Assembly (NCBI GenBank): GCA_964187785.1
Contig: OZ076409.1
Location: 55,492,001-55,556,000 of the forward strand
Direction: 5' to 3'
Origin: Amphiscolops sp. MND2022
Taxonomy: Eukaryota
DNA: 64,000 nucleotides
Part shown: piece by piece, positions 1-47,600 of the stretch
Position numbering within the stretch: position 1 is the stretch's first letter
How the letters are laid out: each line of letters starts with the position of its first letter
The notes under the pieces: generated by a model
What the model was told of the DNA's origin: nothing
What the model saw: only the letters and a program-made list of their open reading frames with translations
Databases searched by the model: none
Translations under genes and position numbers: made by a program

Positions 1-1153
1 GAGGAACAGCATCTTCATCCATGAATAGAAGAAATTTTCAAGGCAATCTAAAGGAAAAGAAAAATCAAGAAAGAAAAAACTACGCTATGTGAACGCAAAT
101 ACTCAAAAAAAAATTTACAACGTCACCCCTACGTATTCAGGAAAGATACACATTCTTCAACTTCACTGAAAGGCCTAATGAGGCATTGACGAGAACAAAA
201 CGTTTCCAGAAAAAACCCTACTGGTGAATAGAAGTTCATCAAGAAGCTCTGAAGAAAACCCTCTTAAAACCATTTTAGAAACTACGTTTCGTGAACGTAA
301 TCCTTTTGAGGAAATTGATGACGTCATGACGACGCTGATGAAAGAAAACGGAATTAGGATGAGGATTTCCTATTTTGACCAATCACAGAAAAGATTAAAG
401 TTCGTCGCCTTAGAAGGTCAGCACGGACCGGAACGAAAGCGGAAAAACCGACCAATAAAACTTCGAGGAAAACTACGACAGAAAGAAAATTGAAACGTTC
501 ACTCGTCGTTCAATTCCACTAATAGCAGGTTGGAAAATAAATCGCAAAAGAAATTCGTCAAACAAAACTACTAAAATGAGCGGATATTCGTTGGTGATTG
601 ACATCTCCTCTGATGAAGAAGAAAGGCGACAAAGCACCACTATCAAAGCACTGCCGCTAAATATGGTCAGGGCGCTTAATATAAGCGATTCCTCAGTTGA
701 AGTGTTGAGGGGAAGCGATGCGGATATGAACTCTGCGTCCGAAACCGAATGAAGACTGGAGTCAGCCCTGAAAAGAACAAAAAGAGAAACGGAAAGGTTA
801 CGTTTAACCTACCTCCCGCAGTAAAAGACTTGAAGACAGACTCAGATACGGATGAAAACTACGAAGAGCCGGACACCCCACGGAAACAGTCCCCCCAAAG
901 CCTTCATTTGTGAAAGACGTCTTCCCCATACACAAAACTGCAAAAGATTACCTGAACAACCTAGAAAGGCCTACAGCAGACAAACTAGCGGCAATGTACA
1001 GCTCAGACGACGAGAAGGACGTATACATGTCTGTTGGACGCGGACGTGGCCCGCATATCCTAAGAAACTACTCCGGTCGGCCTGCAGTGAGAGTAACAAA
1101 GGAGATCCCCCACTGCCACGGACTACCTACGTGCCTAGCAACAAGAGGGGCCC
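1..1153 (+). mobile_element. 3' internal region of a family A LTR retrotransposon (degenerate ORFs, purine-rich tract before the LTR)
   Basis: Lies directly 5' of the LTR that starts at 1154 and ends in AAGAGGGG-ccc (PPT-like). Contains broken ORFs (224-493, 575-752, 910-1263) with no recognisable domain. Confidence 0.55.
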
Positions 1154-1861
1154 TGTCAGGACCCGCTCCCGGTTGTAATTTCACCTGCTGTTCTGGGATA
1201 CCCGGGTACGGAAGGGGACGAGCAACGGCTTTTGCAAGTATTACTAAACTAGTTAAATTTTAACTCAATCAAATGTTTCACTTACAGTACAGCTGAATTA
1301 TCTGTACATATGTTTCCAAATCAAAATTTAACGCAAGCGTCACGGAATATTTTCAGAAATGATTTAGGACTAGCCAAATATTCCGGTTTAATGTTTTCAC
1401 GCGTAACGCTACTTTCATTTCCGGAATCGTCTTCTGAATTTTGTCATACTAATCTAAATATTAAATCAGAAACATTTTCTAATTGGGATCATTCTTCTTC
1501 TGTTCCACAACAAAATGAAAACATCAAAAAGTTATATTTAACTCCGAGATCCCAACGGAGTGCATACGATCTAAAATGAAAAACATACAGAACATAGGGG
1601 AGTTATTTCTCCAGTATTTGAGTAGTTGTCAATATTCACTTAAAGCCTCAGTCGATTGATTTTAAGCAAATGTTTACAACGTTATGACAGCGTCACTCAA
1701 CTGAGCTAATACTAGATGTTTATATTTTTACGGACCAATAGCGTCAATCCTCAACTGAACTTGCGCCGATAGAATTAAGCTCGGTTGCCCCTAGTAACGC
1801 CAATTAGCTAAGAGAAAGAGAATGAATTCGCCTACGCGCTCCGCTTTCCTCTTCGCCGCTC

Positions 1862-1980
1862 AGCTATAACTAATCCTAATACGTACGGAGCGGCTACGGA
1901 GCGGATTGTAAGGTTGTATTTCGCTGGTTAGCTATAACTAATCTTAATACGTACGGAGCGGTTACGGAGCGGATTGTAAA
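1862..1980 (+). repeat. Two-copy ~50 bp direct repeat inside LTR A (AGCTATAACTAATC(C/T)TAATACGTACGGAGCGG...), possible promoter/enhancer duplication
   Basis: Copies at about 1862-1911 and 1930-1980. A related duplicated motif is present in the solo LTRs (about 46610-46720, minus strand). Confidence 0.7.
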
Positions 1981-3050
1981 ACTGTAGATATGAAGTAATG
2001 GTACAAAAAGAATTATGGCAAAGTCTCCTTTTTTGAATTGACGCCTTTAGGTGATCTTTGGAATAGGAGTTCACATGAAGAAAAGTTGTACTGTAAGAAA
2101 AACCGAAGTATTAATTTGATGCTGCCAAATGTGAAATACGGTTGACTTACGTTGCAATTTACTCATCAACAAAAGGGTTTCGATTGAATAGCTTCATATT
2201 ATGGACGATATATTGTGGCAATGAAATAGAAAAATGCAGCGTAAGATTAACTCACTTTCCAAATGCCTTCTTATAATTTCCTGTGTTTGTGACACTACCA
2301 TAATCATGAGTTGCTACCTATTTGATACCAGTCTGTTGTCTGTGTTGATAAGTGGAAACTTTTTACATTATTCTCCTAACTTCTATGGAAATGATGTTTT
2401 GTACAAACGGGTTGTTCCCGTTGTAACTGTTAATGTTTGTGTTTAACCCATACTAGTGCTAAAGGTATGGTGAATGTTTGTTTAAGTTATAATTTGCAAT
2501 ATGCTGTTTCAGCATCGTTTGTTCCTTTACAGTATTTAGGTATTTCCCATTTTTATATTCCTTTACTCCGTTTCATTTCCCTCAATATTTTTGAGCGTCA
2601 TACTTTTGCTTCGAGCATTGATTTCCTAACTTGGGAAGTGACCAATTGATCACGCCGGCGTGTCTTCGTCGATGAAAATTTCAGCTAGACCTTTATTTTA
2701 TCGCAATTTTGAGACTTAAACAGGAAATGGAATTGCCTGAACAGAAATGATTTCAACCAGTATTACGGAATAACGACACAACTAGGAATTTTGATACCTA
2801 ATTTTATGACCCGGGCTGAAATAATTTGAATCATAAGCTCTTTTTGATGAACAAACCTGATTTTTAAGATACCTATTAATTTTTAGGTGAGGAACAAATG
2901 ATGCTGGAAGGGTATAAATTTGTAAGACTTTCATGTAAAGTTAGTTAGTTTTGTGATACCGTACTGTTTAAACTGTTCCGTTAAAACAACGAAAATACCT
3001 TCTTCTAAGAATTTAACATTGTCGAATTTTTTGAATTTTCAACCTGGAAA

Positions 3051-3429
3051 ATGACAACTAGAAGCCAAAAGAGGAAAGTTGTAGCTGAGCTAGTTTCTGG
3101 GGATTTCGAAATCCCTGTGAACGAGAATATCCCGTTTGAGGATTTAATTGCAGGCCCTAGTAAAACTCTCAGGATTGAGCCAGAAAACTTAGACGAAATA
3201 AAAACGTCTTTGAGGAAAGAAATCCTATCTGACCTGTCAAAAATTTTAGCTGTGAACCAAAAGGAAATGCTTAAGTTGACAGCACCTTTGAGTAAAAAAC
3301 GCCCCATCTGTACTAATGACCAGGAATCTGATTCTGAACCTGAAAACATCTCCGTTGCTAGAACGTCAACACCTGTCAAATCAACAATTGCGACTAGCTC
3401 TGGAACTACCCCAGTAAATAGTCGTAACA
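3051..3429 (+). CDS. LTR-embedded ORF (126 aa to the LTR end), probable Gag N-terminus
   Basis: MTTRSQKRK start with a coiled-coil-like segment (LDEIKTSLRKEILSDLSKIL). Same 379-nt length and clear protein similarity in the diverged solo LTR (45412-45034). Continues into flanking DNA to 3494. Confidence 0.65.
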
Positions 3430-4185
3430 GCGCCTACTTTAGAAGTTCTCGTCTTTTTAGAAAATTGAATCTTGTTTTCATCAAGAGTTCGTAAAATTTT
3501 CGGGAACTTTACATTTTTTGCAAGTTGAATTCATCCCAGGGACAGGCCGACGGTTCGAATGCATTAGCTACTAGAATCAGCCTCTACAGTGTCGATGTCC
3601 ATTTAGTTTCTGATGTGCGCAATCATGCTACTTTTGTGTTTGCCACGCTGGTTTTCGTTCATTCGCTTCTTGTATTAACTATTCGTAGAAATATCATTTT
3701 AATCATCATTTTTATCATCATTTCTCTGATTATTACTTAAAAAGTTATATCCTGTTCCTTTAACTTTGGGTAAGTTACAAGTGACAACCCAGGATCAAAA
3801 AGTTTGATAGCTGGAAGTCCAAAAAATGGGTTTCGAAGTAATTTCGAAGAACTTACTACAGAAATACGTATGAAGACTATAGATCACAATTGTAATGCAA
3901 CTGATGTTCTTGTATCAAGATTAAATTATATGGCTGCTTCTCTATAAAAGCAAATCTGTAATAAGCAACATTACAACGATCTTCGAACGCTGAATTTGAA
4001 GGTGAGACGATTCCTTGGTAACATGGTAAAAACTAAGCACCAGAAAAGTTCACTTTTTGATTTGATTCATGAAGTTAGTCCAATGATTAGTTATCAACAA
4101 CAAACTTGAAGAGGAAGGTATCACAGCATGAAAACTATATTGTTTATGAAATGATTTATGAAAAGATTCGGACGTCAAGATGACA

Positions 4186-23092: not shown

Positions 23093-23520
23093 CATTACTG
23101 TGCCAAAAGTGGGTTAACACACTTTTGTGCTATTAAGTCACCGAAATCCACTGACATACTTTTAAACATGTATTTCACTGATTTTCATTGGATTCCGCTG
23201 TTGCCTGTTTTGGATTCCACTAACATATCTAGCTAATGTACAAAAATGTGTGCACCGAAATCCACTGCTTTTCACTGCCAACCGATTGAACCAATCGCGT
23301 CAGCTTACTTCAACTTTCAGCGAAATTCGCTGAAACTTGCAGTGGATTCCACTTCAGCTTACAGTGGATTCCACTTTGGCTTACAGTCGATTCCACTTTG
23401 GCCTACAGCCGATTCCACTTTTCAACTTGTGGAATTGACTGCAAAACGAGTGGAATTGACAGTAAGCCAAAGTTGAATTCACTGTAAGTTGAAGTGGAAT
23501 CCACTGCAAATTTCAGCGAA
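23093..23520. repeat. Foldback/MITE-like element with GTGGATTCCAC units and a ~70-bp-arm inverted repeat (23325-23520)
   Basis: TTCGCTGAAACTTGCAGTGGATTCCACTTC... pairs with ...GAAGTGGAATCCACTGCAAATTTCAGCGAA. Confidence 0.65.
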
Positions 23521-27127: not shown

Positions 27128-28718
27128 AATAAAAAAGTCCATGACCATGATCGTTTAAGGTGGTTTCCTGGCAAGAAAATCTCTTCAGTATCTCATACGC
27201 TTGTTCAGAATTACTCAAAATGATGAACTCTTTTCCAAGCATTTAATAAGGTCGAATTGCCAAATTAACCCTAAAAAACACCATTGCAACAAAAAATAGT
27301 GCGAAACGTTTCACTTATAAGCGCTGTCGTATTCTCTATTACTATCATTAGAGTCTAGGGAACTCTCTCTAGCGTTCTGAATAGAAATACTCTTCTTTTC
27401 GTTCTTTTTGAGCTGTTTGGATGTGGTTTGATTTGTCAGAGTACCATCGGAACTCCTATGTATTCCAACACACTGAAGGTCCAATCTTGCATTTAACCCG
27501 TTCTCCAATGCGCCAACTCCGGAATCACTTACTCAATTAGTGCAGTGTTTACTGCTATTAATATTTGAGAAACTAGACTTAAATTTCCTCTAAATTTTTT
27601 TTGTCTCCTGATAATTTAACTTTGTATTGATCACGACAACTGTCTCTGCAGTCTTCTCACTATTTCCTCTACTATTGCTGTTTAAAAGTGATCTAAAATC
27701 CTCTTCCAACATAAGATATCAGTAATCTCTTATAGTCCGACTAACACTGAGTCAACTTGTTACCTGTTGTCAGGGTGAATTGGGAACCATTTCCAGGGAA
27801 ATTTCCCAACATAATTTCCATATTTTCAAAATCAGACTTTACGTCCGATTGTCTGTAGCGCTTTTTTCAGCTTTTTTTCTGATTGAAGGCACAATGAAAT
27901 TAAAAAAAGTTCGAAACTAAATCGATCAAAGGTCTGAGAGCTTAATTAAGTATTGGAACAGAGCAGCGGTATGTATATTGGCTTGACAGTTGTGGTTTGA
28001 TTAAATGTCCTCCTTTTAACATCAAACAACCAAACAACTTCGATATATACTTAGCCGACCATCACACTTCTAAATTAGAGTGTCACGCTGCTAAAAATAC
28101 ATACAAAATTAGGCCACTGAGACTATGAATAGATTGGAACTATAACAACACATTACGTCACAACCTAAAGTGTTCTGCAAAGAGCAGCTATAATTATTTC
28201 ATATCTAGAACAAAAAAACATTATAAACTGCTTACATGACCGCAAGTTTACAAGCTCTAAACCTGTATGAAACTAACAAAGCATCATGGTTTTAAAATGG
28301 ACATAAAGTTCGCTTGACTACAGCACAAGTACGATTGATCTAAATGCGGTAATCTGATTTGTTGGATTAGTTTGCGGTTAACGCGTCAACTGGAGTACAG
28401 CTTTGTACCACTCGAACGCGTTTTGTTTTCAGATTTAAGTTGTACATTTTGAGTTTTTCTGATTTACTGCACTCACAACAGTATTAGCAGAGTCTATTAT
28501 GTACAATTTCGTGTACATGGGAAATAACACTTATGGTTAAATCTAGTCGTATAACAATATCACTAGAAAATATACATGACAATGAGATATCCGTTCATTG
28601 CTAGGTGGTAGCTTGTGACAACGGCTGTTTCAGCAAACATATCCCACGACAATACAAAATGCATTTCCATTTGATTCTGTACATTAAATTGAATGATTCT
28701 ATTTCGTCAAGTGGTAAC

Positions 28719-29333
28719 TGTCATGCCGGAAGCATGAATGAAACTGATAAAAAACATTCTAAACATTAAAAACTCAGTTAAATGTAATACTCTTGATATT
28801 TCAATAACCATGAATTACCATTGAACAATGACGGGCCTATCCTATCATCATTACTACTTTCCAAGAATAAAATCAATTTGTAAAGGTTGGCATCATTTAC
28901 TCATTACACGCTACGTACAAGGGCTTTCATCATTTTTAACTTCATCAGTAATCTGTAGTATTATATATAACAATGGTATGACACCATCATCATAGATTCA
29001 ATTTGTATCAACCAACGCAATACTAAAGTGATAGATGATTCATGTAACCATGGTAACATATCGGCGCTATCTTTTGTACCAAACGCCATTTACGTTGCTA
29101 CCAGCAGGACGCACCAATTAACACCTAATCAATAGCGCAATACTATTGGTCAATGCAGTCACGTGACCAGCTTCAGTGAAAATTGCGACAAGTGTTGAAA
29201 TTCCTTCAGTACAATTTAACTTCAGCTAACGTAGTATTGCTTACCTCATTGATTTACGCAAAACTTGATATTCACATTTTCAACTTGATCAATAAACCTT
29301 TAAAACAGCAATTCCTTTCGAAGATTTTGAAGA
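28719..29333 (+). mobile_element. Truncated 5' LTR of family B
   Basis: Matches 42768-43382 up to TTTTGAAGA, then joins directly to RT sequence. Confidence 0.92.
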
Positions 29334-32300
29334 ACGGGAAACTTCGGATATTAGTCGACTTGAGGCGGATCAACCACCTCCTCAAAAACGACTACAACAA
29401 ACACAACCATCCAGTAACAACAATTGCCGATGCAGCCCAGCACATGGCTGGCAAGAAGTACTTTTGCAAGCTTGACTGTTCGCAAGCTTACACCTGCCTC
29501 CAAATGGCCGTCGAACAGTCAATACAACTTCTGGCATTCAATTTTGGCAGCAGAACCTTTGCTTATCTCCGACTTGCGCAAGGGTTGAACAGGTCTTTGT
29601 CTGCATTCAACAGCACAATTCGCGAGTATCTGGATGCACTAGTAAAAGCAGACAAATGTGCCCAATATGTCGACAACATTGGGATCGCTGCCAACAATGT
29701 GGACGAACTGATAATCAACATCGAAGCAGTTTTCCTGCAGATACAGAAAGCAGGACTAAAGTTGTCGTTGTCCAAATGCGCTTTTGGCCACCCGAAGATC
29801 GAGTTCTTGGGTAGAAACATCACTACCAAAGGGATCGCACTGCTTCAGGACAAGACCGACAAATTCCTCAACAACTTGAAACTACCAACGTCAGTCAAAT
29901 CACTGCAACGCTATATCGGATTTGTACAGTTCTACAGACAATACAGACCGATGTTGGCAGAAAAGCTCGTAACCTCTGTACAAGTTACTACAGAAAGACG
30001 TCAAGTTCGCCCTGACACAGGTTCACAAGGACGCAATCTTCGACATCAATCAGAACCTGGCACGGGCTGCTAAACTGTCTCTTCGACTACCCCTGCCAGA
30101 CAAACAGATAGTCATCATGTGCGACGCGAGCGAACACGCAGCAGGATACGTACTCCTCATTGAAGACTACACCGAAGCCAATGATGGACAGAAGAAGACA
30201 TACGCCCCGGGAGCATTTGGCTCGCAACGATTTACTGAAGGTCAAATGTCATTGACCATGTGTGCGAAAGAATTCCTCGCAATGCACTTCGCCTTCGACG
30301 AATTTGCTCACATACTGTGGGGAGTCAAAAACCCACAATTGTGATGACGGATTACAAAGCACTGACCCGCTTTTTCCAATCGAAACGAATCCCACCAACG
30401 CTGTGGAACCATTGCGACCAAGCACTGCAGTTTGATTTTGTCCTGGCTCACGTCCCTGGAGTCGAGAATCCTGCAGCAGACTACTTGTCAAGACTCGATA
30501 TAAACCCTGAGGACAGGATACACTTCGAATTGAACGACCAGATCCCAGTCCACCACATCGAGATAGATCTTGCGGCCAAAACCCCAAAACAGGACGATGA
30601 CGAGGAAGACTACGATCCTGACAAACAGCAACCCGATGTAACGACGATCACTACACCAAACCAACCCGAGACCACTGCTCCCACTGACGACTTTGCGAAA
30701 ATGCAGTCTTTGCTAAACTCCCTGGCGAGCAACCACCATCAACATGACGATGAACGCCTCAAAATGATTCAACTCATCAGCAGACACCTTGAACCAGTTC
30801 TGGCAGGCGACGCCCCTTCCGTCATACTAACGAGGTTTACCAGACGTCATCACCCCAACTCGGAAAATCAGGTATGCCCATATGGGGATTCACAAACTAT
30901 CCAGGACCAGTTAAGTGACCAGGAGATCCAAAAAATGGTTCGCATTTTAACAAACAACGAACCACTGCCAAGCCACGTTAACTTTACCAGTTCTTTTTTC
31001 CAAAAACTTGTAAAAAGCAGAAAACGACTTGAAGTTGTCAACAAGGTCTTGTATAGGAACTTTTTTGATAACACTGGCAGAATTCTACTTACACAAATTG
31101 TAGTACCTCCAGAAACTACTATGCCCATAATCAGGACAATGCATGGCGACCCCATGCAGGGACGACCTGGGGCATCAAAAATGTTGGTAGCGTTATTACA
31201 TACCAAACGCGAGTTAACACGTGTCAAAGTACGTAAGTAACTGTATTGAGTGCATAAAAGCAAAACCTGTTAACCGGAAACGACTGACGCCTCCTTTGGA
31301 AAAGATCTACGACCCCTGCAACGGTCCGGAAGACGTACTGGAAATTAATTTGGTAGGCGAGCTACCTAATTCAAACGGATATACGCACATCCTGACGGCG
31401 TGCGACTACTTCTCGCGTTATCTGTTCGCGGTACCGATCCGAGAACCAGATGCGAAATCCGTGGTGAAAGCACTCATGCAAATATTCACCCAACACGCCT
31501 ACGTCCCGAAAACAATAATCGCTGACAAAGGCACAGCTTTCATATCCAGCATCATGACCGAAATAATGAAAACTGCGGAAATCAAGATCGACCACGCTAC
31601 TGTAAAGCACGCCCAAACCATAGGGATGGTGGAACGTTCCCACCAAAAACTGAAACAGATTCTGAAAATTAACGTTTTCGCTGACTCCCCACAATGGGAT
31701 AGGTACGTTAACATTGCAGTAATGGCACATAACACAACCTACCACCAATCACTCAAGTGTGCTCCAAGCGAAGTCTTCCACGGTAGGATTCCGTTTAACG
31801 AACTAGATCTCAAATTCGGCAACCCCCTGAAGTGTGAGACTACGGAAACTGACCTAACGAGACTAGTTGATCAAGTGAATGAGAAGTACCGACAAGTGAA
31901 CGACAATATACTACAAGCGTACCATAAGTACAGAAGGTATTACGACCGCAAAGCTCAAGCGTTATCGTTAAAAGTCAACGACTTCACCTTCCTGCTTAAT
32001 CCCAAACTCACAACACAGTCCGACAAAATTAACTTCAGTGACTTCAAATGGGAAGGTCCCTTCAAAGTAATTAAAGTCCTAGCAAACTTCAACTACATAA
32101 TCAGGAAAGTTGGCACTTTCCGAACGCAGTGCGTGCAAAGGATGCGACTACGTCCCTTTACACCGAACGCACCAATACCGGACATTGAAGACGACTCAAA
32201 TCGCTTGTTCGCTGACCCTGACGTGGCCGATGATCAAGCGCTCTTCAATGACCAAATACCTCAATACCCTCACATCGAACCGGTACCAGAAATTGTAGAC

Positions 32301-32660
32301 CAAGAAGAAATCGACAGCGAGCATGGCAACATTTATTATGAGCACGTGCGGAAGTTACGTGATCAAACAACTCCGCAACCAATTCCTGAAGGTCCACCCG
32401 AAACCTGTGAACAAACTTATGACAACTCAGCCGCTTATAACGACACACACAACGAATCTGCTACCGAAGCAAACGAATCTGTTACTGAACATACCACGAC
32501 AATTCACAATGAGCACAACCATACGACGTCGCGTAACAACGCAACACGGTACAACCTCCGAACCGAGCCGCAACCGAAAACCTACAAAGACTTCTTAGTT
32601 CACGAACTCCGAGTCAAACCAGCTTTGCTAAAATTCAGGCAAGACAGACCCGTCAACTAA
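29334..32660 (+). pseudogene. pol: Degenerate pol (RT, RNase H, integrase)
   Basis: GKLRILVDLRRIN, KLDCSQAY, YVDN (normally YVDD), CDASEHAAG, VMTDYKAL, ENPAADYLSR, CIEC, EINLVG (normally a catalytic D), ADKGT, GMVERS, WEGPFKV. Several frameshifts. Confidence 0.95.
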
Positions 32661-32686
32661 AACTCATGCAAACATAACATCTGTTT

Positions 32687-32735
32687 TTCCTCTTGCTGGC
32701 AACTCGTAGGATTCGCCTCGTGTCAGTAATGGGAG
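32687..32735 (+). other. Conserved RNA stem-loop motif just 3' of the pol stop (further copies at 33744-33774, 35291-35321, 36835-36865)
   Basis: 31-nt core CTGG(CA/TG)A(C/T)TCGTAGG(A/C)TTCGCCTCG(T/C)GTCAG with compensatory pairs and G-U-rich outer stems. Confidence 0.6.
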
Positions 32736-33280
32736 TGTTCTACACTCTCCCCACAAAAAAAGAGTCTCGTAACACATACATGTAAATTAAATCAAGTATC
32801 TACGAAGAAAACCGATACTGAAAAATACCACAAATAACGTCTGACACTCACTGTCATTAAATTTCAAAATTACCGGTCGGAGCATATTTCCGCCCTTAAC
32901 CGGCTAACGAACGACAGACGAGACACCTGTAACACAGTTACACACACCGTGTCACTACATGTTACTTAACGTTTCACTCTATTCCGACAGTGGAATGAAC
33001 AAAAAGAAACATCTAACGCTGTCAAGCATACCACGTCAATCTTACCATAAATAAAAAACACATGCATTTAACTGAATGTAGCCTACATCACCACATGTAA
33101 CAACCATACCATCGAATTACTTATTTTATTTTACACCATTCAGTGCCGACTGATACTCACTGTCCTGCAGACCCGAGTTTTACTGGCAGAGTAAATTGTT
33201 ACTCTCTACCGAGACAGCTATGCGCGAAAGTGAATACATGTAATGCAGTCACATGCACCACATCAACCTAACCGGAAATT

Positions 33281-36200
33281 ACTAAGTACATGTAAAACAC
33301 TTGTAAGCGAGCCACTAAATTATTCATTTCACGAAAATCTCCAACCACACGCCTTCAAAGGAATTGCTTTGCAATTCCGTATCCAACAACTCTGAATCAA
33401 CTGAATTCGTCGCTTTGGAAAACATAATAGCCCACAAACGAGAATGTACAAGAAATAGCCGATTCGTTTAAGTTACGTCACCAGAACCTAGTTTCAAACT
33501 TCCGCCCCGATTAACCATGATGTGGTTCGGCTGTGTGGGTGCGTCATCAAAAGCGCGTCTGTGTGGTTGGTCAAACATTCAGATGAAGCTTGCTCTTTAG
33601 CAAGTGGATTCGGTGTTAGTTTTGTATGGGTTTTTGCGACGGCAAATACCTTCCCAATTAACGAAAACAAAATCACTTTCCTTGGACAGTAACATGCAGA
33701 CGTCGCCCTCATTCGACTTTAAGTCGTGACGTTGTTGTTTTTACTGGTGATTCGTAGGCTTCGCCTCGCGTCAGGAGGAACAACGGTACGAAATACATGT
33801 AGTCACCATTACCACATAACCGGAATTCGAAACAAGAAATGGATCACACCACCCCTTGCCAAAATATTTAACGGACATGGGGAAACCCATTTTCCATTAA
33901 ATTAACGTTAACATTTGACACACGTTACGAGTGATGACGTCTCATGACACACATCAGCGATGACGACGTCGGAAATAACGCTCAATTTTACAACCAAAGT
34001 AATACATGTAAAGCACAAAAAATGATTGACACCTTAGAATGACACTTATGCTCCTAAACACCCGTTAAACCACACGCACTTAGAGTATATAAAGCATGCA
34101 AGACATTAGTTCGATCATTGGGAAGTAGCGGTGCAGCTCCGTTCATTCACCTTGGTGTAACCACAGGGTATCAGTACCACTTTCCGAGACCTGTGGGCAA
34201 ACCTCCGTGAATGAAACTCTGTCTTAAGTGGTGGCTACGCAAGTAACCACCATGCAATCTCACTAGAATAAGAAACAACTCTATTCAGTCTCCTAACAAA
34301 ATGAAACGAGCTAACGAAATTCTCATGTAAAAAATTTGTATAACGTAGGCAACATGTAAAGTCAACTTCAGTAACGATGCTGGAAGCAAAACAAAATAAG
34401 GTCAAAGGTCATGCACCAACAACAACTGAATACTACAAATCATGAACAACAAACAACACAACGGGTATGCGGCATGAACCAAAAATCATCAAAATGAAAA
34501 CTGAAAAACAAGTTCAACGTTCTAAAACATGTAAATTAACCGGAAGTCAAACAAAAAAAACTGCACGTTAGCACAACTAGCCTCTTGTGTCCTCTGATAT
34601 ATCCAAAACCGCTCCCGCAGTAAAACAACAAAATCATATATGAACTATCCGCTCAGAAGCAAAACTTTCAAATTTGATACAAGTCATTCGAACAGGCAAC
34701 AAACTACCCTCTACAAAATTAAGCTCAACACAGTTTAGTTCACAACTATTGATCCGACGAATCACGGATGGCTTGCTTCGTCCGCTTGCTAGTAGACAGT
34801 GGCTCATCAACACTGGACAATTGAGTACTAAGTACATGTAAAACACGTGTAAGCGAGCCACTAATTTATTCAATTCACGAATATCTCCAACCACACGCCT
34901 TCAAAGGAATTGCTTTGCAATTCCGTATCCAACAACTCTGAATCCACTGAATTCGTCGCTTTGGCAAACATTGTAGCCCACAAACGAGAATGTACAAGAA
35001 TTAGCCGATTCGTTTAAGTTACGTCACCAGAACCTAGTTTCAAACTTCCGCCTCGATTAACCATGATGTGGTTCGGCTGTGTGGGTGCGTCATCAAAAGC
35101 GCGTCTGTGTGGTTGGTCAAACATTCAGATGAAGCTTGCTCTTTAGCAAGTGGATTCGGGTGTTAGTTTTGTATGGGTTTTTGCGACGGCAAAAACCTTC
35201 CCAATTAACGAAAACAAAAACACTTTCCTTGGAAAGTAACATGCAGACGTCGCCCTCATTCGACTTTAAGTCGTGACGTTGTTGTTTTTACTGGTGATTC
35301 GTAGGCTCCGCCTCGCGTCAGGAGGAACAACGGTACGAAATACATGTAGTCACCATTACCACGTAACCGGAATTCGAAACAAGAAATGGATCACACCACC
35401 CCTTGCCAAAATATTTAACGGACATGGGGAAACCCATTTTCCATTAATTTAACGTTAACATTTGACACACGTTACGAGTGATGACGTCTCATGACACACA
35501 TCAACGATGACGACGTCGGAACCAACGCTCAATTTTACAACCAAAGTAATACATGTAAAGCACGAAAAATGATTGACACCTTAGAATGACACTTATGCTC
35601 CTAAACACCCGTTAAACCACACGCACTTAGAGTATATAAAGCATGCAAGACATTAGTTCGATCATTGGGAAGGAGCGGTGCAGCTCCGTTCATTCACCTT
35701 GGTGTAACCACAGGGTATCAGTACCACTTTCCGAGACCTGTGGGCAAACCTCCGTGAATGAAACTGTCTTAAGTGGTGGCTACGCAAGTAACCACCATGC
35801 AATCTCACTAGAATACGAAACCACTCTATTCAGTCTCCTAACAAAATGAAACGAGCTAACGAAATTCCCATGTAAAAAATTTGTATAACGTAGGCAACAT
35901 GTAAAGTCAACTTCAGTAACGATGCTGGAAGCAAAACAAAATAAGGTCAAAGGTCATGCACCAACGACAACTGAATACTACAAATCATGAACAACAAACA
36001 ACACAACGGGTATGCGGCATGAACCAAAAATCATCAAAATGAAAACTGAAAAACAAGTTCAACGTTCTAAAACATGTAAATTAACCGGAAGTCAAACAAA
36101 AAAACTGCACGTTAGCACAACTAGCCACTTGTGTCCTCTGATATATCCAAAACCGCTCCCGCAGTAAAACAACAAAATCATAGATGAACTATCCGCTCAG

Positions 36201-37917
36201 AAGCAAAACATTCAAATTTGATACAAGTCATTCGAACAGGCAACAAACTACCATCTACAAAATTAAGCTCAACACAGTTTAGTTCACAACTATTGATCCG
36301 ACGAATCACGGATGGCTTGCTTCGTCCGCTTGCTAGTAGACAGTGGCTCATCAACACTGGACAATTGAGTACTAAGTACATGTAAAACACGTGTAAGCGA
36401 GCCACTAATTTATTCAATTCACGAATATCTCCAACCACACGCCTTCGAAGGAATTGCTTTGCAATTCCGTATCCAACATCTATGAATCAACTGAATTCGT
36501 CGCTTTGGCAAACATTGTAGCCCACAAACGAGAATGTACAAGAATTAGCCGATTCGTTTAAGTTACGTCACCAGAACCTAGTTTCAAATTTCCGCCCCGA
36601 TTAACCATGATGTGGTTCGGCTGTGTGGGTGCGTCATCAAAAGCGCGTCTGTGTGGTTGGTCAAACATTCAGATGAAGCTTGCTCTTTAGCAAGTGGATT
36701 CGGGTGTTAGTTTTGTATGGGTTTTTGCGACGGCAAAAACCTTCCCAATTAACGAAAACAAAAACACTTTCCTTGGAAAGTAACATGCAGACGTCGCCCT
36801 CATTCGACTTTAAGTCGTGACGTTGTTGTTTTTACTGGTGATTCGTAGGCTCCGCCTCGCGTCAGGAGGAACAACGGTACGAAATACATGTAGTCACCAT
36901 TACCACATAACCGGAATTCGAAACAAGAAATGGATCACACCACCCCTTGCCAAAATATTTAACGGACATGGGGAAACCCATTTTCCATTAAATTAACGTT
37001 AACATTTGACACACGTTACGAGTGATGACGTCTCATGACACACATCAGCGATGACGACGTCGGAACTAACGCTCAATTTTACAACCAAAGTAATACATGT
37101 AAAGCACAAAAAATGATTGACACCTTAGAATGACACTTATGCTCCTAAACACCCGTTAAACCACACGCACTTAGAGTATATAAAGCATGCAAGACATTAG
37201 TTTGATCATTGGGAAGGAGCGGTGCAGCTCCGTTCATTCACCTTGGTGTAACCACAGGGTATCAGTACCACTTTTCGAGACCTGTGGGCAAACCTCCGTG
37301 AATGAAACTCTGTCTTAAGTGGTGGCTACGCAAGTAACCACCATGCAATCTCACTAGAATAAGAAACAACTCTATTCAGTCTCCTAACAAAATGAAACGA
37401 GCTAACGAAATTCTCATGTAAAAAATTTGTACAACGTAGGCAACATGTAAAGTCAACTTCAGTAACGATGCTGGAAGCAAAACAAAATAAGGTCAAAGGT
37501 CATGCAACAACAACAACTGAATACTACAAATCATGAACAACAAACAACACAACGGGTATGCGGCATGAACCAAAAATCATCAAAATGAAAACTGAAAAAC
37601 AAGTTCAACGTTCTAAAACATGTAAATTAACCGGAAGTCAAACAAAAGAAACTGCCCGTTAGCACAACTAGCCTCTTGTGTCCTCTGATATATCCAAAAC
37701 CGCTCCCGCAGTAAAACAACAAAATCATATATGAACTATCCGCTCAGAAGCAAAACATTCAACTTTGATACAAGTCATTCGAACAGGCAACAAACTACCA
37801 TCTACAAAATTAAGCTCAACACAGTTTAGTTCACAACTATTCATCCGACCAATCACGGATGGCTTGCTTCGTCCGCTTGCTAGTAGACAGTGGCTCATCA
37901 ACACTGGACAATTGAGT
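33281..37917 (+). repeat. Three-copy tandem array of a ~1545-bp unit inside the retrotransposon
   Basis: Units 33281-34826, 34827-36370 and 36371-37917 each start ACTAAGTACATGTAAAACAC. They are near-identical with scattered SNPs. Confidence 0.95.
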
Positions 37918-38031
37918 ACCATGATCTGAAGCCTCACCAGCTGCCACAGATAACACCAGCGTCTTAGCTGCATGCGGCTTTCCGCCGGTTCGCCGTCCTT
38001 TTCCAGACTTCACCACTATGCTATGACCTCG

Positions 38032-41000
38032 TCAACTGACTGCACCGCCCGTTGCTCGCCCTGTAGACTTGGAGGTCCCAACTGTAGCCACGTTAGGTTT
38101 CTTCTTAGGCGTCTTCAACTTGACATCGGACTGACTGCGGGGCCGCTTAGCCTTCACGTCTGAACTGGATGGCATCGCTCTAGAACCCGGCGCCATACTA
38201 GTAGGGCTCGTTGCCATTACCTCCATGACATTCAACTGTGCAAGTACTTTTGAACGGTACTCATCTACCACCGGAACGACTGTCGTATCAGGACCATTGT
38301 CCAACATGGACAGACACAAGGACAGCGTTTGATCCAGCCCGATTTTGAGAAGCTGATCCCACGGCTTGATTGATCCCACAAAGGATTGACTAAACCAACT
38401 CCGGACGAAATGCAAGCTTGAGGCGAGTTCATCAGCATCCAAAGCCCCATTGACGTCGTCCACAATATCCGCCCGGTACGAATTAGTTACCACTGCACTG
38501 AAAGCCAGATCGACGACCTGCCGCAACTGTTCACACCGCTTCCAGTGAGGATATGACATCCACAACGCGATAATGTCCTCTACCACTGGTAGTTTTTCCA
38601 CAGAAAATGCCCAACGTCTCTTAAAAAATTGGGTAACTTCTCGATACTGTTGCTGAACTACTCCGCCATCATCTAGCTCCACAAGCCCATGAGCAGTCAA
38701 TACAGCACAAGTTGCTACTAAGGAGTCGACACGGCGATCATCAGACCCACTATGGATAAGGATCGGATCGAATGGAGTCCAACTCAAATGCTGGGGCCAC
38801 GTACGCTGCCACAATCCGCTCAATCCACGGCATATACCAACTAACATTTTCTGGACACATTTGTAAAAGAAAGGCAGTTGAGTACTGATTTCAAAACGGA
38901 AATACTGCTCGGAATGTAATCTGTACAAGTTAGAGTCTACGTCTGCATACTCCCAGTCCACGGGTGAACTGGATAGATAAACCTCATTAGCCCACGCAAA
39001 AAGTGAGCCAGTTCTCTTTCCGAGACAATGCCATAATCACGTCCTCGTCCAAACAAACTAGGACAATGCTTCACCACTGCAACACAAATACCAATGAGTC
39101 ACCCTCCAAACTTTGCACACGGAACCTTAGTTCTATACCCCACCCATAACCTAAGTTCAGTCCATAACAAAACATACGATTATACAGCTACACGTACACC
39201 CAAACGAGTCTCCGAACAACAACACATAAATCCATACTCACTCAAATCTAGCACAAGGCGTAGAACAGCAAAATGAGGCCGAATCAATGCATCCTTGAAC
39301 ACCTGACTTTCTAGAAGAGTAATTGGACGCAGTTCTGATGTCACACCCGGTCTATGAGTGCCAAAGTACAGCGCCAAATCATTCCAGTAGTCCACCACTT
39401 CTGCGCAAACGAGTGCAAGTTGAGACACGTCATCTCCACCGAGTCGAATATACTACAAAACAAGAGCACAATCTACCCTTTCACCAGAGCGAAACAACCG
39501 CAATCCTACACAAATGCCACGGCCTACACAAAAAAATTTCCTATACTAACCCGCCGCAATAAAGGCAACCGATCTAAGAAACCCTCTTGAGCCACAGACA
39601 TCAGTCTCACACGAAAGTACAAGAGCTTGCTTCAATCAGTGCGTCTAACTGCTTCACTGCATATTGGTATAATCTATACAACACGAGACTCTAAACAGAA
39701 TCAAACAACCTGATAAACTAGCGAAAACTTAACCAAACACAACACTCATACCCAAAAAGTGTAACAATGAACCGATAACAACCACATCACTAGCAAGTTA
39801 CCTAAGTCGCCCGTACCGTTTAAAGTAACTGCAAAATTCGATTAAACCTGACACCGAGTGTAGGTCAGGGTACGGCACTCAAAATGAAGTTCGTTTGCCA
39901 TACAGTCCCTCCATGCGTCCAGCGACCGGAGCACCCCATCAAAGGACGTCACGGTCAGAAAACTCGAAACGAAATTACTCAACCACAAGTAATTCACACT
40001 TTCGTAATGCAAATGTGGGCGTGCGCCTTCTTCAGCCTCTGCCTCTTCAATTGCTATTCGCTCCTCCACAGTTAGCTTTAGGGCAGACTCTAGGAAGACC
40101 GGCAGTTCGGTCAGCCGGGCACGTCTAATCCGTCGATCTTCTTCTGCAGATACTGGCCTGCAAGACTTGTCCAGTAATGGCTTGTGTGTCATAATTCTGT
40201 ACTTTTGTTCTAATCGGGTATGTTCTACCCCCTTCCAGTGATCCCACAGCGATGACAGCCCACGCCCTGCAATACTCAGGTCCGCCTGACAAAGCATACA
40301 CCGAGCGTATCCGTCAATCACCCGCTTGTTTCGGGGGAAACCAACGAAGGTCCCCACGACGACAGAAACAAAGTAGGACGACTTTAGCGTCTTGATCTTC
40401 CGGCACGAACTAGAACAAACACACACAATGTGTTAAATAGTCCCACATAAACTCAAACTTGCAAAAAAAAAACAAAACAAATTGTCTTGTCTCTTGATAG
40501 TCTTAGCATTATTGTTAACTAAAACCCCACCCATTATCTTTTGAGATTCTTACCAGATTTAGCAGCTGTCACTTTCCCCGCACTGGATGCTCCCGCTGTC
40601 GTCCCCTCTCTAAACATGGAGGGAACCATCGATGCCGGCCGACTCATGACCGACAAGTCTTTTTGAGCGTCACTTCCACCTGGCACAACACCCACAGGCG
40701 AAGATGATATAAGGGGCACATCCTCCACAGGTACGGCTGCTCTCAAGTCACCAGCAGGGACTAAACGGGAAACTGCTGCAGTCAGCTGCCCGACAAACTC
40801 ATCCACAGCCACTGCACCAACTGTCCCTAGCTGACCAAGAGTGGATTCGATGGTAGCCTTTACTACGCCGGACAACTCTTTTTCCAGTCGGGCGATCGAA
40901 GCAACGACGTCGCTCAGAGTCAACACGCCCCCCACCGCCACACCTGGAAACATTCCACCCAAGGGATAACAATGCAGATTACTACACGTCGTGCAAACGA

Positions 41001-41732
41001 GATCAAATCTCGACGCCAACTCTAAACAACTGACACGCCGTACAGAGTAATAACGGTTATGCTACACCTTCGTTACAACAATGGACCAGTTAGCGAACAG
41101 ACCTACCAGTTTGGCTGTACACATAATTCCGGAGCCCAGTCTCGACGGCACTCACGGGAGACGCACCTACTGGAGGCTCATTCTGTTGGAGCATTCGACG
41201 TAGAACGGCGACGATATCGGTCAGACTCAAAGCTTCTGCAACACACACAGTACAACCTAACCTATGGGTATCATTAGCAATGTCTAAAAGTCTATCCAAG
41301 GTAAAAATTCCCGGGATGTTCTTTCAGTCGTGACGTTGGTAACTACACTACACAAATACCAATGCCACAAACACTCCAATTACCTTGACGAGCTTAACCC
41401 TAATTAAAAATCACCCAATAACGAACTCGTAGAAAGACCGTCTCAATAGCCGAAAAAAAATGACAACTACGGATTTACTTACGGAATTCGCTGGACAGAG
41501 CTATGTCCAACAACGTCAACAACGTAGTCGCAGCCTCTACATTGGATGAATTCACACGCCGAGCAAACTGGCAGCATAATAATTGCGTCTCTCCTTCCAA
41601 CAACGCATCAACTGAGGCTTGGAAATCCTCTTCATCGGATAACTGCTCCAGATTGGACATCTCAGCTAACGCACATTCTGTGGCTATCACAATCGATGCG
41701 ACTTCTTCTTCAGATAACTCAGCTGATAACAT
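38032..41732 (-). pseudogene. Antisense spliced hAT-transposase-like cargo gene, copy 1 (retains C-terminus; ~350-bp and ~42-bp deletions, frameshifts)
   Basis: BED-like finger CMLC..WDHWKGVEH and hATC-like LWMSYPHWKRCEQLRQVVDLAFSAVVTNS. GT-AG introns, e.g. 39691-39847. Confidence 0.72.
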
Positions 41733-42755
41733 TCAAGTAAAAGCCAGAACTAATCATGAACAACGAATGGCGAACAAGACAAAACGGTCTATGGCTGTAG
41801 AATTCGCGATCAACCAGGCTTCAGCGTCTTTGACGATACGAGATGTGGACTAATCACCCACACCCTCTGTGTTCACAAGACATCGAAATATCACAAAGAG
41901 AATTTTCAACCGAATTTACTCGAAAATAGTTCACTCGGAAAAAATTCAGGCTCAAAGAACGCTTTCGTTCGAATACTAAAGATCGCCGAAACCTACTCAT
42001 AAACAAAAAAAAGAAAAAGAACAACACCGAAAAGCAAAATTAACAAGAAGACAAAATGCCAAATTCGAAAGTCTTAATACCCTGCAAGTGAGTTTCCACG
42101 CAGAGCAACCTAGATGCAGATAGTATCACTGAACTGATTTCCTGCTACATCCACCTGGTATACCGCTAACTGGACAATAACAACTTCAATCAACAACTAA
42201 ATCAATCGCAACCAAGCTTACTTCCTTCTCTCGTATTTGGCATCGACGAAGATTTGTTTACAAAGCGCACGATGTTCAACTACATTCACTCCAAACAGTT
42301 ACCGAATTAGCCGAGTAATTATATCACGCTGCCACGTTCGATTAATTTCCGGCAGATTCATTCTTACTTAAACTCTCACTGCAAACAACGCGCACGATTG
42401 GATGACGTGGCTACTCTCGCCACATCGACTCTACATTTGCTCTTTACCGAAGTGGATCAATCAACGCGCTAATTTCATTCTCTTCCTCTCGCTTGCTGAA
42501 CTGAACCGAAGTAACCGTTGGTTCCAACCAATCCGACTATTTCCAGCCATGAAGTCGACTCGTCTTTGCCGATGTGGTTGCTATGCCATCATCCGCAACA
42601 AACAATGCAAACGTAGTTGAAGTCACTACATCAGCCGAATAACCTTCGCAGCAAGATTAGGCAGCTAACACTTACTGCACACCTGATGCTGCTACATTTA
42701 CCACACCTCCCCGCTACCAGCCTTCTAAATACCCCTGCATTCCACTTTACTGTTT

Positions 42756-42767
42756 AAGGAGGGGGAG
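42756..42767 (+). other. Polypurine tract AAGGAGGGGGAG
   Basis: Abuts the 3' LTR. Repeated before 53165 and 63844. Confidence 0.9.
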
Positions 42768-43704
42768 TGTCATGCCGGAAGCATGAATGAAACTGATAAA
42801 AAACATACTAAACATTAAAAATTCAGTTAAATGTAATACTCTTGATATTTCAATAACCATGAATTACCATTGAACAATGACGGGCCTATCCTATCATCAT
42901 CACTACTATCCAAGAATGAAATCGATTTGTAAAGGTTGGCATCATTTACTCATTACACGCTACGTACAAGTGCTTTCATCATATTTAACTTCATCAGTAA
43001 TCTGTAGTTTTATATATAACAATGGTATGACACCATCATCATAGATTCAATTTGTATCAACCAACGCAATACTAAAGTGATAGATGATTCATGTAACCAT
43101 GGTAACATATCGACGCTATCTTTTGTACCAAACGCCATTTACATTGCTACCAACAGGACGCATGATTTAACACCTAATCAATAGCGCAATACTATTGGTC
43201 AATGCAGTCACGTGACCAGCTTCAGTGAAAATTGCGACAAGTATTGAAATACCTTCAGTACAATTTACCTTCAGCTAACGTAGTGTTGCTTACCTCATTG
43301 ACTTACGCAAAACTTGATATTCACATTTTCAACTTGATCAATAAACCTTTAAAACAGCAATTCCTTTCGAAGATTTTGAAGATGGTCAAAACTAGATCTC
43401 AAAACGTAGATAGTTACGCAGCATGTTCCAGCGGAATGGAACAAAACAGTGACAATGAGAGCGAATATAATTTCCCTAACACGTTATCACGAAATCAAAT
43501 GAACGAATTCGAGAATGGAGATTTGATCAACGTTAGACATAATTCCAACCTGAATTTCAGTCGACCAGCGTTTCATGGAAATGAACAGACAAATCAATGA
43601 TTTAACAAGTATTGTGTTAGCCCTTACTGAGAAAATTTCATCATCGACAACCGAATGTAGCGGACTCAACACCGTTACTAATACGAACGTGACCCGTTCT
43701 GACA
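42768..43704 (+). mobile_element. 3' LTR of family B (937 bp)
   Basis: TG..CA termini, preceded by the PPT and followed by TSD GTAAC. AATAAA at about 43340. Confidence 0.95.
43382..43704 (+). pseudogene. LTR-embedded ORF of family B, probable Gag N-terminus (one frameshift near 43555)
   Basis: MVKTRSQN... then, after a one-base shift, SVDQRFMEMNRQINDLTSIVLALTEKIS...TRSD to the LTR end. Confidence 0.6.
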
Positions 43705-44644
43705 GTAACATATTCCAATATGATCGTATGTATGTCGTGGTAGTAAGAAGCTCAATTTTGACTGGCCATCGACTAGGATGAAAATCAAGACATGATGTTC
43801 CGTATTTCAACCTAAAAAACGTCATCTTGTTGTACAATCGTCTTCGTGTAATATCATATAGACTCAATTGTGGTGTCTCAATTGGATGTCGAGGTATTTC
43901 ACTATTGGGGCAGTCCCCTTAGTGCTCAAAAAGCGCAGTCTTTTATAATTGCTCGTGTACTTGTGTTTTAGATGGTTCTGTTATATTTTAGATTCGAGAC
44001 CACGGCAAATAATTTACGAAAGGCGATGAATTAAAATGAGTCAAATCATCAGAGTGGATTTTGGAAAAGTTTGAAGCAGTGTATTAGGTTTTGTTCAAAT
44101 TTTAAGTCGGAATAATCTTTAAAGTGGTGTAAAGTATCAAAAGTGTTTAGTTTACTTGTGGAAATGAGAATTGGATATTAAGCTCCTATAATCCACTTAG
44201 AGTGTTGTTTAAAATGAAGAGTTTATAAATGAAGTTTGTTTAAAATGAAGATGTTTTCAATTTGCAAGTATAGAGTCTGTCAGTTGTTCAGAGAAGTATG
44301 TTGGTTGTTCATTTTGTTTCGAGGTTTTTGATTGGCAAGTCTTTAATTTAAATTTAAGAATTATTGAATTGACTTATCGAGACCAGTTTACGTTTAATTC
44401 CTGTTATTTCAGCACAGCGTTGTAGTTTTATAAACACACTCAAAAACAGATTTCATCGATGTGATCTAGGAACATTTCAACATGTGATCTAGTTTTCATC
44501 CAAATGAGAAAGTTGAAAGAAGGTGAGTAAGCTCCTGGTTAGTTAGAAGACTTGGAATTTTAAATCCTTGTGGGACCAATTTGAAATATTCGAGAGTTTT
44601 TGCTTAGTGTGAATTTTCAATTGAATAGTTTCATTTTGTATGTT

Positions 44645-47600
44645 ATGGCGAATGTTCGCAAACTACGAAACAACTCCAAAGCTTCATCTACTCTGTGCAA
44701 GGAATGCAACATGGCTGTCAAGGATGATGACAGATCAGGAATTTGCTGTCACTCTTGCAACGACTGGACCCACGGTGGATGTGTTGACTTGAGTGTCACT
44801 GATGTTGAATGGCTTGGATCCAAACCCAACTGCTTTTGGGTGTGCAATTCATGTGTGCATAATGAAGTTTTCACCAACATATCTGAAGACAAGTTGACAT
44901 CGTTGTTTGATTCTTCTGTTGCTGAACTTATCCCTAATGCAATCGATGACTCTTTGCCAAAAATCATAATTGAATTAAATGAAAAAGTTAAAACTGCTGT
45001 CGTTGATTCGTTACCCTCATATAAAGACGTTGTTGTTACGACTATTTGCCGGTGTTGTTTTTGAGTTAGTCGCAGTGTGTATCTTAACGGGAGTGGACGT
45101 CCTTATTGCGGAAACATTTTCAGGTTCAGAACCAGAGTCTTGGACGTTCACGTGGACCGTTTGTTTCTTGTTTAAAGGTGTTATCAGTTTAAGCATTTCC
45201 TTTTGGTTCTCCCCAAGTATTTTTGTTAAATCAGACATGATTTCTTTTCTCAACGAAGTTTTAATTTCTTCGAGATTTTCAGGTTTTAGCCTAGCCGACT
45301 TACTAGGTCCAGCTATTAGGCTTTCACGAGGATTATTTTCAGCTAGGGAATCTTCAAAGTCACCAGAGACAAGCTCTGCTACAGCCTTCTTTTTCTGACT
45401 TCTAGTTGTCATTTTAGTTGAGAGAGAGAGAGTATCTTTGGAAAGATTGAATTCTTCAAAGATTTAAGTTTTCTTTCGAACACATTACGATAACGGAACA
45501 GAACTAATTGTTACAAAACGGTTTACAAAACTGAATGAATCACATGTATGTTTTACATATTTATACCTTCCCAGCATCATTTGTTCCTCACTTAAAAATT
45601 CCTAGGTGTCACAAAATCGGGTTTGTTCAACAAAAAGCGCTAATGATTCAAATTATTTCAGCCCGGTGTCATAAATTCAGGTATCGAAATTCCTAGTTGC
45701 GTCACTATTCCGTAAAACTTTGTTGAAAGCATTTTTGTTCAGATAATCCATTTCCTGTTTGAGCTTCAAAATTGCGGCAAAATAGAAGTCTAGCTGACAT
45801 TTTTATCAGCGTAGGCACGCCGGCGTGATCAATTAGTCAGGCGTGACGGAATTAAGAATTTCGGAGGAACAGTCTAGTTATTAGAGAGGATAAATGATGC
45901 TAGAAGAATTTCACCAGAACACCTTGAACTACTGTTACACATCATGAAGCCACAACAATACTTATTTAGTACAAAATTACACAAACGTAAACACAACGGT
46001 AATTGTAGCGAAAAATAGGTTCGTATAAAATTTACGCCTCATATAATATTGGAATCATTTGTGGATTTTACATGATCATTATATAGGTCAAACTCAAACC
46101 AAACATAACTTGACTTCAACTAGATTACTACCTTAAAGTAGCATAAATTATGGACTTCCGGCGTTGTTAGGCCAACATTAGTGTAAAGCATCAAAATGAA
46201 AGTTGTCCGTAATATAAAAAGGGGGGGAAATTTCAGAGCACTCTTAACACTGGCTGCGTTGTTGATTATCATTGATAAGAATAACATGTGTGTTCTTAAT
46301 TGAAGGGATTACCTAGGTACAACTAGCACCAAACGTTATCCTCACCTTGTCTTTTTTAACTACGCCAACAGAACGTAATAATATGATACTCAACATTATT
46401 CTTTTAAAAGGGAGTCTTATGCAACGTGGTGTTAACGTATTATCTTTACAATGCAAGATTAAAACACACGGTAAACTTTTCAATTCTCTCTAACAGTACA
46501 GCTTTTCTTATGTAAAGTTATTCCCGAAACCTTTAAATGCGTCGATTCAGAAAGACCTCGTTTAAATTCCATTTAGAACAATACTTCATAGTTGCTATTT
46601 TCACAATTTGCTCCGTAGGCCTTCCGTATGTATTAAGATTGGTTATAGCTGAGCGGCGGAATACAATTTTACAATCCGCTCCGTAAGCGCTCCGTATGTA
46701 ATAAGATTGGTTATAGCTGAGCAGCAGTAGCAAGCGGAGTGAAAACGGAGAGCGTAGGCGTTTTCATTCGCTTTTCTTAGCTAGTAAGCGTTGCTAAAGG
46801 CAATCAAGCGCAATTCTATTGGTATGAGCTAAAATAATTCCGCCAGCAAGCGACGCTATTGGTCCGTAAAAATAGAAACACCCGTTGCTAGCCTAGTTGA
46901 GTGACGCTGTCATAACGTTGTAAACAATTACTTAAAATCACTTGACTGCGGTTTTAAGTGGATATTTAACAACTACTTTAATATTGGAATACATTTTCAC
47001 TATATTTTTGTATGTTCTTTCATTTTAGATTGTATGGACTCCGTTGTGATGTCGGAGTTAAATGTCGTCCCTGTGTTTTCATTTTAGTGTGGAGCAACAA
47101 AAATGATCCCATTTGCAAAAATGTTTTTGTTTTAGTATTTAGATTGGAATGGAAAAACTCAGAAGATAAAACCGGAAAAAAAACGGGGTTGCGTGTGAAA
47201 CATTAATCCGGAAGTTTTAGCTAGTTTAAAAGTCATTTCTGAAAAATCTTCCGTAACGCTTACGTTGAATTCTGTATCTGGAAAATTATTTGCACTTATT
47301 TAGCTGTACTGTAGGTAGAACTTGATTAGTTTAACAGAGTTTAAAGTTATTTACTTTGCCCTTGTCCGTGTCCTCTGCCGAATCCCGGTATTCCAGAGCA
47401 GCAAGTAAAATTACGACCGGGAGCGGGTCGTGACAGTTGTAACTGGCAAAAACGTAAACAAATTCACTACAAACTCTGAGTTGAACTTCATCTCACTGGG
47501 GCCAGCGAAATTGGATCAACTTACTTTCAGCAAGTTGACATGATTCGGAAACTGTGAACAAAATCCCTGGTCACATGCGTCTGGAAAACGAAGGCAATGT

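Follow-up and report, generated by a model that had tools for sequence, protein, structure and literature searches.

In the Saccharomyces cerevisiae retrotransposon Ty1, GAG starts in U5, and only about a dozen of its codons lie within the long terminal repeat (LTR). The primer binding site (PBS) of this element is inside the GAG ORF (PMC4974528, in part), and a truncated Gag without the N-terminus, p22, restricts Ty1 (PMC9283973, in part). Tca5, a Ty5-like Ty1/copia element of Candida albicans, has a single ORF that begins within the left LTR, with the first ATG at position 382 of 685 bp (PMC4139406, in part). By our arithmetic from the same excerpt, about 100 codons lie in the Tca5 LTR, and the frame crosses the PBS. 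Ty3/gypsy elements, for their part, are described as having TG...CA ends, a 5-bp target site duplication (TSD), a PBS adjoining the LTR, a polypurine tract, a gag with capsid and knuckle, and the order protease, reverse transcriptase (RT), RNase H and integrase (PMC3601003, in part). A published gypsy gag that starts in the LTR was not found in a literature search run without Repbase and most subscription journals, which makes this a weak negative.

Here, we analyze a 64-kb stretch of the Amphiscolops sp. MND2022 genome (the window), which carries LTRs of two families, A and B. We consider it very probable that the reading frame at 3051–3429 is the first quarter of a Ty3/gypsy-clade gag that runs without a stop via the LTR end and a tRNA-Leu PBS into capsid; its translation from the 5′ LTR likely gives the genuine N-terminus of Gag, and the copies found in 3′ and solo LTRs likely arise as a side effect when the LTR is duplicated. 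The window features that the text refers to are as follows.

1143–1150, plus strand: polypurine tract directly 5′ of the 3′ LTR, seen in the sequence; the C5 element has an identical tract there.
1154–3429, plus strand: family A 3′ LTR (2,276 bp, TG...CA), part of a 21.1-kb Ty3/gypsy element by BLAST and flanks.
2913–2918, plus strand: TATA-like box 138 nt 5′ of the ATG, a promoter predicted from sequence.
3051–3429, plus strand: N-terminus of Gag as coded by the LTR (126 codons and the terminal A); it continues 21 codons into the flank, with a stop at 3492–3494.
3180–3281, plus strand: codons 44–77, a long amphipathic helix and the sole predicted structured part of the LTR-coded segment (in a model of the relative P0003, pLDDT about 91–92 at residues 51–70, flanks below 50).
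28719–29333, plus strand: family B 5′ LTR remnant; a deletion that begins at the ATG site fuses it to pol, with RT and integrase downstream.
42768–43704, plus strand: family B 3′ LTR (937 bp) with AATAAA at 43340–43345 and ATG at 43382; the frame is broken, with a stop after 72 codons.
45034–47435, minus strand: 2,402-bp solo LTR from a diverged lineage of family A (TSD GTTGT).
45034–45412, minus strand: LTR-coded frame of this solo LTR, 126 codons, with a stop 5 codons inside the flank.
53779–54101, plus strand: tandem duplicate of the broken family B frame.
55649–56027, minus strand: tandem duplicate of the 45412 frame, not a separate insertion.

The family A LTR at 1154–3429 has its 5′ partner 18.9 kb upstream (G000:C1:55474328-55476523), and GCGCC is duplicated on both sides of the 21.1-kb element (right copy at 3430–3434). 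The purine tract, the partner and this duplication rule out that the LTR is a lone (solo) copy. The two LTRs differ by 110 mismatches over 2,186 aligned bases; a second family A element is flanked by the TSD CCAAG. The family B element spans 28719–43704, with GTAAC at 28714–28718 and 43705–43709, and its deletion took away the LTR–PBS junction and gag, leaving no such junction within the 64-kb window.

The same stretch holds several further structures. The solo LTR at 45034–47435 sits antisense within a PHD-finger ORF (a Pfam match to PHD at E 4.8e-5, slightly short of the curated cut-off) that it splits into pieces at 44585–45061 and 48053–48649; we presume that this ORF is ORF1 of a LINE-type element. 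A tandem segmental duplication runs from 38600 to 64000 and on to about G000:C1:55580835, in at least 5 units of about 10.4–10.7 kb that are 97–99% identical and each include the family B element's 3′ portion together with the family A solo LTR. The family B element also contains three tandem copies of a 1.55-kb unit (33280–37919, 98% identical), located after integrase and before the antisense region. Both families have several long antisense ORF pieces in the region from pol to the 3′ LTR (window 38032–41061, L177:8934–9824 and L034/L035 10300–13300, all on the minus strand), and the two examined have no Pfam match. In the window's family A element, the gag piece is separated from the pol piece by a 748-codon ORF without a Pfam match, probably a nested insertion (L031:8270–10000 into L032). 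At 23326–23520 there is an inverted repeat whose 72-nt arms are made of 22-bp tandem units.

The elements belong to Ty3/gypsy because their pol follows the order protease, RT, RNase H, integrase. Specifically, Asp_protease lies upstream of RT in the C5 element, and in the C4 family B element RVT_1 and RT_RNaseH are followed by Integrase_H2C2 and rve, so that integrase comes after RNase H and not upstream of RT as in Ty1/copia. They also have two direct TG...CA LTRs with a TSD, a tRNA-complementary PBS, a polypurine tract, and a Gag with capsid domains and a CCHC knuckle, and thus share ends, 5-bp duplication, PBS site, polypurine tract, gag and pol order with the described type (PMC3601003, in part). 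The best matches of the RT among solved structures are foamy virus, a caulimovirus-type polyprotein and Ty3 (E 5e-23 to 2e-16). Unlike in Ty3, whose PBS is in or beside untranslated regions (PMC4974528, in part), the PBS here lies within the gag frame and the gag start codon is in the LTR, which is the layout of Ty1 and Tca5. Tca5 differs in turn: according to the excerpted review, it is a Ty1/copia element with a tRNA-iMet primer, low copy number and very few solo LTRs, and its start site is called unclear (PMC4139406, in part), whereas here we find a gypsy clade with 14 families, thousands of junctions and measured selection on the LTR codons.

Evidence for the frame starts with the two family A copies in the window. 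As the initial annotation had reported, the ATGs at 3051 and 45412 (minus strand) each stand exactly 379 nt from the LTR end and open 126 codons with no indels; the two proteins are 70% identical. The indels it had seen upstream are also there, 12 of them in the 380 nt 5′ of the frame when the two copies are compared. Differences are distributed 27/25/67 over codon positions 1, 2 and 3, against 20/26/23 upstream, which excludes a chance ORF. For family B, the annotation had read an LTR protein from MVKTRSQ to a terminal TRSD. This does not hold in the window, where 43382–43704 and 53779–54101 are 323 nt long, stop after 72 codons and have the two motifs in different frames, but it is the usual state of the family: 22 of 30 genomic copies measure 322 nt from ATG to end, and 21 of these 22 are open to the LTR end.

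The frame was expected to read from the terminal A of a 5′ LTR through the PBS into gag, and it does so: in 5′ LTRs of both families it stays open past the PBS and goes on into sequence for capsid and zinc knuckle. From the ATG in the 5′ LTR that pairs with 1154–3429, the frame is open for 406 codons, with matches to DUF1759, Retrotrans_gag and zf-CCHC, and a family B copy has 529 open codons across the junction. Among the top-scoring copies, a set hence biased to young ones, and with 8 tandem duplicates removed, an intact LTR frame is present at junctions in 9 of 16 copies of family A and 7 of 9 of family B, and in 3′ or solo LTRs in 21 of 40 and 14 of 17 copies, respectively (together 35 of 57 distinct 3′ or solo copies). 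The PBS is complementary over 13 nt to the 3′ end of a tRNA-Leu(CAG) gene. Matches to the 3′ end of tRNA-Leu, the tRNA type that primes this clade, number 793 genome-wide, nearly all on one strand; a dense array of them lies at G000:C8:35595873-35653625 and beyond, often about 296 bp apart.

The layout extends well past the two families. The genome contains 3,337 instances of the LTR–PBS junction pattern, and we took the first 70 junctions on contig C1 as a census. At 43 of these 70, at least 90 codons are open upstream in the phase that reads the terminal A with the TG of the PBS (A|TG), compared with 0 and 1 for the two remaining phases. The 70 LTR ends form 25 DNA clusters, and 14 clusters (families) have a member with 103–183 codons from ATG to LTR end. 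Where at least 200 codons are open downstream (35 junctions), 31 also have a long upstream frame, and the other 4 are in families that possess one. The 34 internal Gag pieces that match family A do so at 26–94% identity or are self matches. Five loci (L107, L108, L124, L144 and L145) have an LTR end like that of family A relatives without a downstream gag match, and are possibly a non-autonomous derivative that lost the frame.

Two arguments of the initial annotation do not survive this census. It had regarded families A and B as independent; their Gags are homologous (26% identity), so that A and B are branches of one clade, the quick Gag tree with its two long branches being used for grouping only. 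It had also counted the shared phase of both families as evidence, yet only A|TG can cross this PBS: one alternative phase meets TGG-TGA in the PBS at 70 of 70 junctions, and in 42 of 70 a TAA or TGA immediately ahead of the terminal CA closes the third. The common phase is therefore forced by the PBS sequence, and we reject it as a sign of selection. The N-terminal parts of the main branches have diverged past pairwise detection. They have a common plan, which consists of a basic start, an acidic or polar stretch, one heptad-like helix and a polar linker.

Substitution patterns show that the LTR codons are under purifying selection. The two family A copies in the window differ at 66 of 86 synonymous and 53 of 292 nonsynonymous sites, with no indels; dS of this pair is saturated, and the bootstrap range of 0.04–0.18 comes from unsaturated resamples only. 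Between lineages, the median dN/dS of the LTR part, which the initial annotation had proposed as a check, is far below 1 in five families (0.14, 0.14, 0.17, 0.09 and 0.18; a sixth is saturated). Internal gag in five families gives 0.09, 0.03, 0.04 and 0.09, and an outlier of 0.59 from a single pair over a short stretch, so constraint is weaker on the LTR part (0.09–0.18) than on internal gag (0.03–0.09).

After insertion, the picture is different. Differences between the 5′ and 3′ LTRs of one element are post-insertion changes, and in 18 such pairs, matched by position and strand and with target duplications confirmed in 2 of the 18, pooled pN/pS is 0.93 (bootstrap 0.71–1.24; neutral simulation 0.64–1.07). 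The differences are spread 100/95/94 over codon positions, and none of the 12 indels is a multiple of three. Low dN/dS between lineages against neutral drift after insertion indicates that the protein is selected during element replication and not afterwards.

These patterns bear on whether Gag might instead start at the junction, where the terminal A of the LTR and the PBS form an ATG, with the upstream frame a conserved cis-acting U5 sequence or a relic. Such an ATG is present at every junction by construction, in frame and in a strong context (most families have a purine at −3 and G at +4), and the database has predictions of 343 residues that match the expected length. Yet a cis-acting sequence would not vary chiefly at third codon positions, nor would it avoid indels, and the upstream ATG is conserved, has a good context and is the first after the predicted start. 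A control gypsy-like lineage with the same tRNA-Leu PBS also has the junction ATG, but only a short frame there, and its gag-like ORF begins about 60 codons downstream (5 loci: L110, L152, L173, L174 and L176). As such, the junction ATG alone is uninformative, and the PBS does not impose the LTR-start layout. We regard a junction start as the sole origin of Gag as very unlikely; because the junction itself forms an in-frame ATG in strong context, a shorter Gag may be made from it too. The LTR-start layout is a real, clade-wide variant of a known arrangement, in which the LTR holds the beginning of gag and selection acts on it there.

The predicted protein is in line with an LTR-coded Gag N-terminus. 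An AlphaFold2 model of a full Gag relative (P0003), of low confidence overall (31 sequences, mean pLDDT 57.6, pTM 0.26), has disorder at residues 1–43, a single confident helix at 44–77, disorder at 81–176 across the junction, and capsid-like helices at 194–344 followed by the knuckle region. A coiled-coil N-terminus had been proposed from the sequence; the model does contain the long helix, which may form a coiled coil and is likely a matrix-like oligomerization stalk. Foldseek matches in the PDB are all capsid-like (BLV, Arc, PNMA2 and dArc), none reaching E 0.001. In Pfam, DUF1759 is above cut-off in P0003 and P0084, Retrotrans_gag and zf-CCHC are below it, and the 126-residue LTR-coded piece alone matches no family; Atlas neighbors of the Gag are gag clusters at 0.93.

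Signals around the start codon suggest how the frame could be expressed. Among 60 family A loci there are 58 TATA-like matches 130–159 nt upstream of the ATG, and among 30 family B loci there are 29 matches to AATAAA about 40 nt before it; a conserved AATAAA before the ATG was not found in the family A loci. The 100 nt before the start are free of ATG in 14 of 14 families, compared with 23 of 138 background windows, a leader compatible with first-AUG initiation. One pattern was used to look for polyadenylated retrocopies, from which the cleavage site of family B could be read, and it gave 0 matches.

From these sequence features, family A transcription would start about 110 nt before the ATG, and the ribosome would use the LTR ATG as the first AUG. 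The LTR-coded segment would be U5, as the position of AATAAA in family B suggests, and reverse transcription would copy it from the RNA's 5′ end to both new LTRs; as a consequence, 3′ and solo copies would keep a gene-like look without selection on them. The LTR end and PBS would fall in the disordered linker, which would tolerate their fixed bases.

The initial annotation went on to suggest that solo and 3′ LTRs, with a promoter, an ATG and an N-terminus, could fuse with flanking DNA or yield inhibitory peptides. We find no support for this, given the neutral drift after insertion, the random length of read-through and the absence of common tails among 67 predicted products. Past 57 distinct 3′ or solo ends, the frame runs on for a median of 14 codons (maximum 76), compared with 13 from 513 starts chosen at random in flanks. 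Used as a profile, the family A part matches 666 predicted proteins, which are gene predictions and not expression evidence; among the best 150, 90 reach the LTR end and 3 run into gag. In the same 150, no tail among the 67 non-gag tails of at least 25 residues resembles another. Pfam searches of 50 of these 150 find gag in 2 and weak DNTTIP1-dimer matches to the LTR helix in 2; a single borderline match, to BLOC1S3, has no passing stretch.

That solo LTRs have given their promoter, ATG and N-terminus to flanking sequence and so founded host fusion genes is, on these data, extremely unlikely. By construction, no stop closes the frame at the LTR end, and predicted read-through products have tails of up to 108 residues, but read-through is as short as from random starts, the 67 non-gag tails are all unlike one another, the 50 proteins scanned hold no convincing non-gag domain, and the solo LTR in the window is antisense to the ORF that it splits.

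A further possibility is that a short Gag peptide consisting of the helix alone is produced from solo and 3′ LTRs, and that it binds full-length Gag and restrains transposition in the way of p22 in Ty1. The LTR has a TATA-like box, a first-AUG start and the entire helix, 35 of the 57 distinct 3′ and solo copies keep an open frame, copies number thousands, and an effect exerted by young copies requires no selection after insertion. Since the LTR carries the whole N-terminal helix, preceded by its own promoter and first AUG, there is also a small chance that every new solo LTR adds a dominant-negative gene for the Gag stalk, a copy-number brake that would grow with element debris without selection on single copies. 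Against an inhibitory peptide, the copies drift neutrally and acquire frame-breaking indels after insertion, and an LTR without a built-in stop gives every product a random tail. The likeness to p22 is also limited: p22 is the C-terminal part of Gag, made from an internal promoter and retaining capsid, whereas the LTR codes for the N-terminus, and its piece ends at residue 126, short of the capsid helices that start at 194 (p22 as an N-terminally truncated Gag: PMC9283973, in part). In family B, moreover, AATAAA 5′ of the ATG would end transcripts that arrive from upstream. Taken together, we consider a p22-like peptide unlikely; the evidence favors a by-product over a brake, and consequences of the solo LTRs are most likely incidental.

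For this clade, a layout described for yeast Ty1/copia now extends to abundant gypsy elements, at the scale of a domain (103–183 codons) and with selection measured. It follows that U5, the integrase end and the PBS can code for protein over long evolutionary time, and that annotation which looks for the start behind the PBS makes gag too short. A solo LTR with a random tail accounts for thousands of short orphan genes predicted in this genome, and the clade offers a system for testing the old idea that solo-LTR peptides act as a brake.
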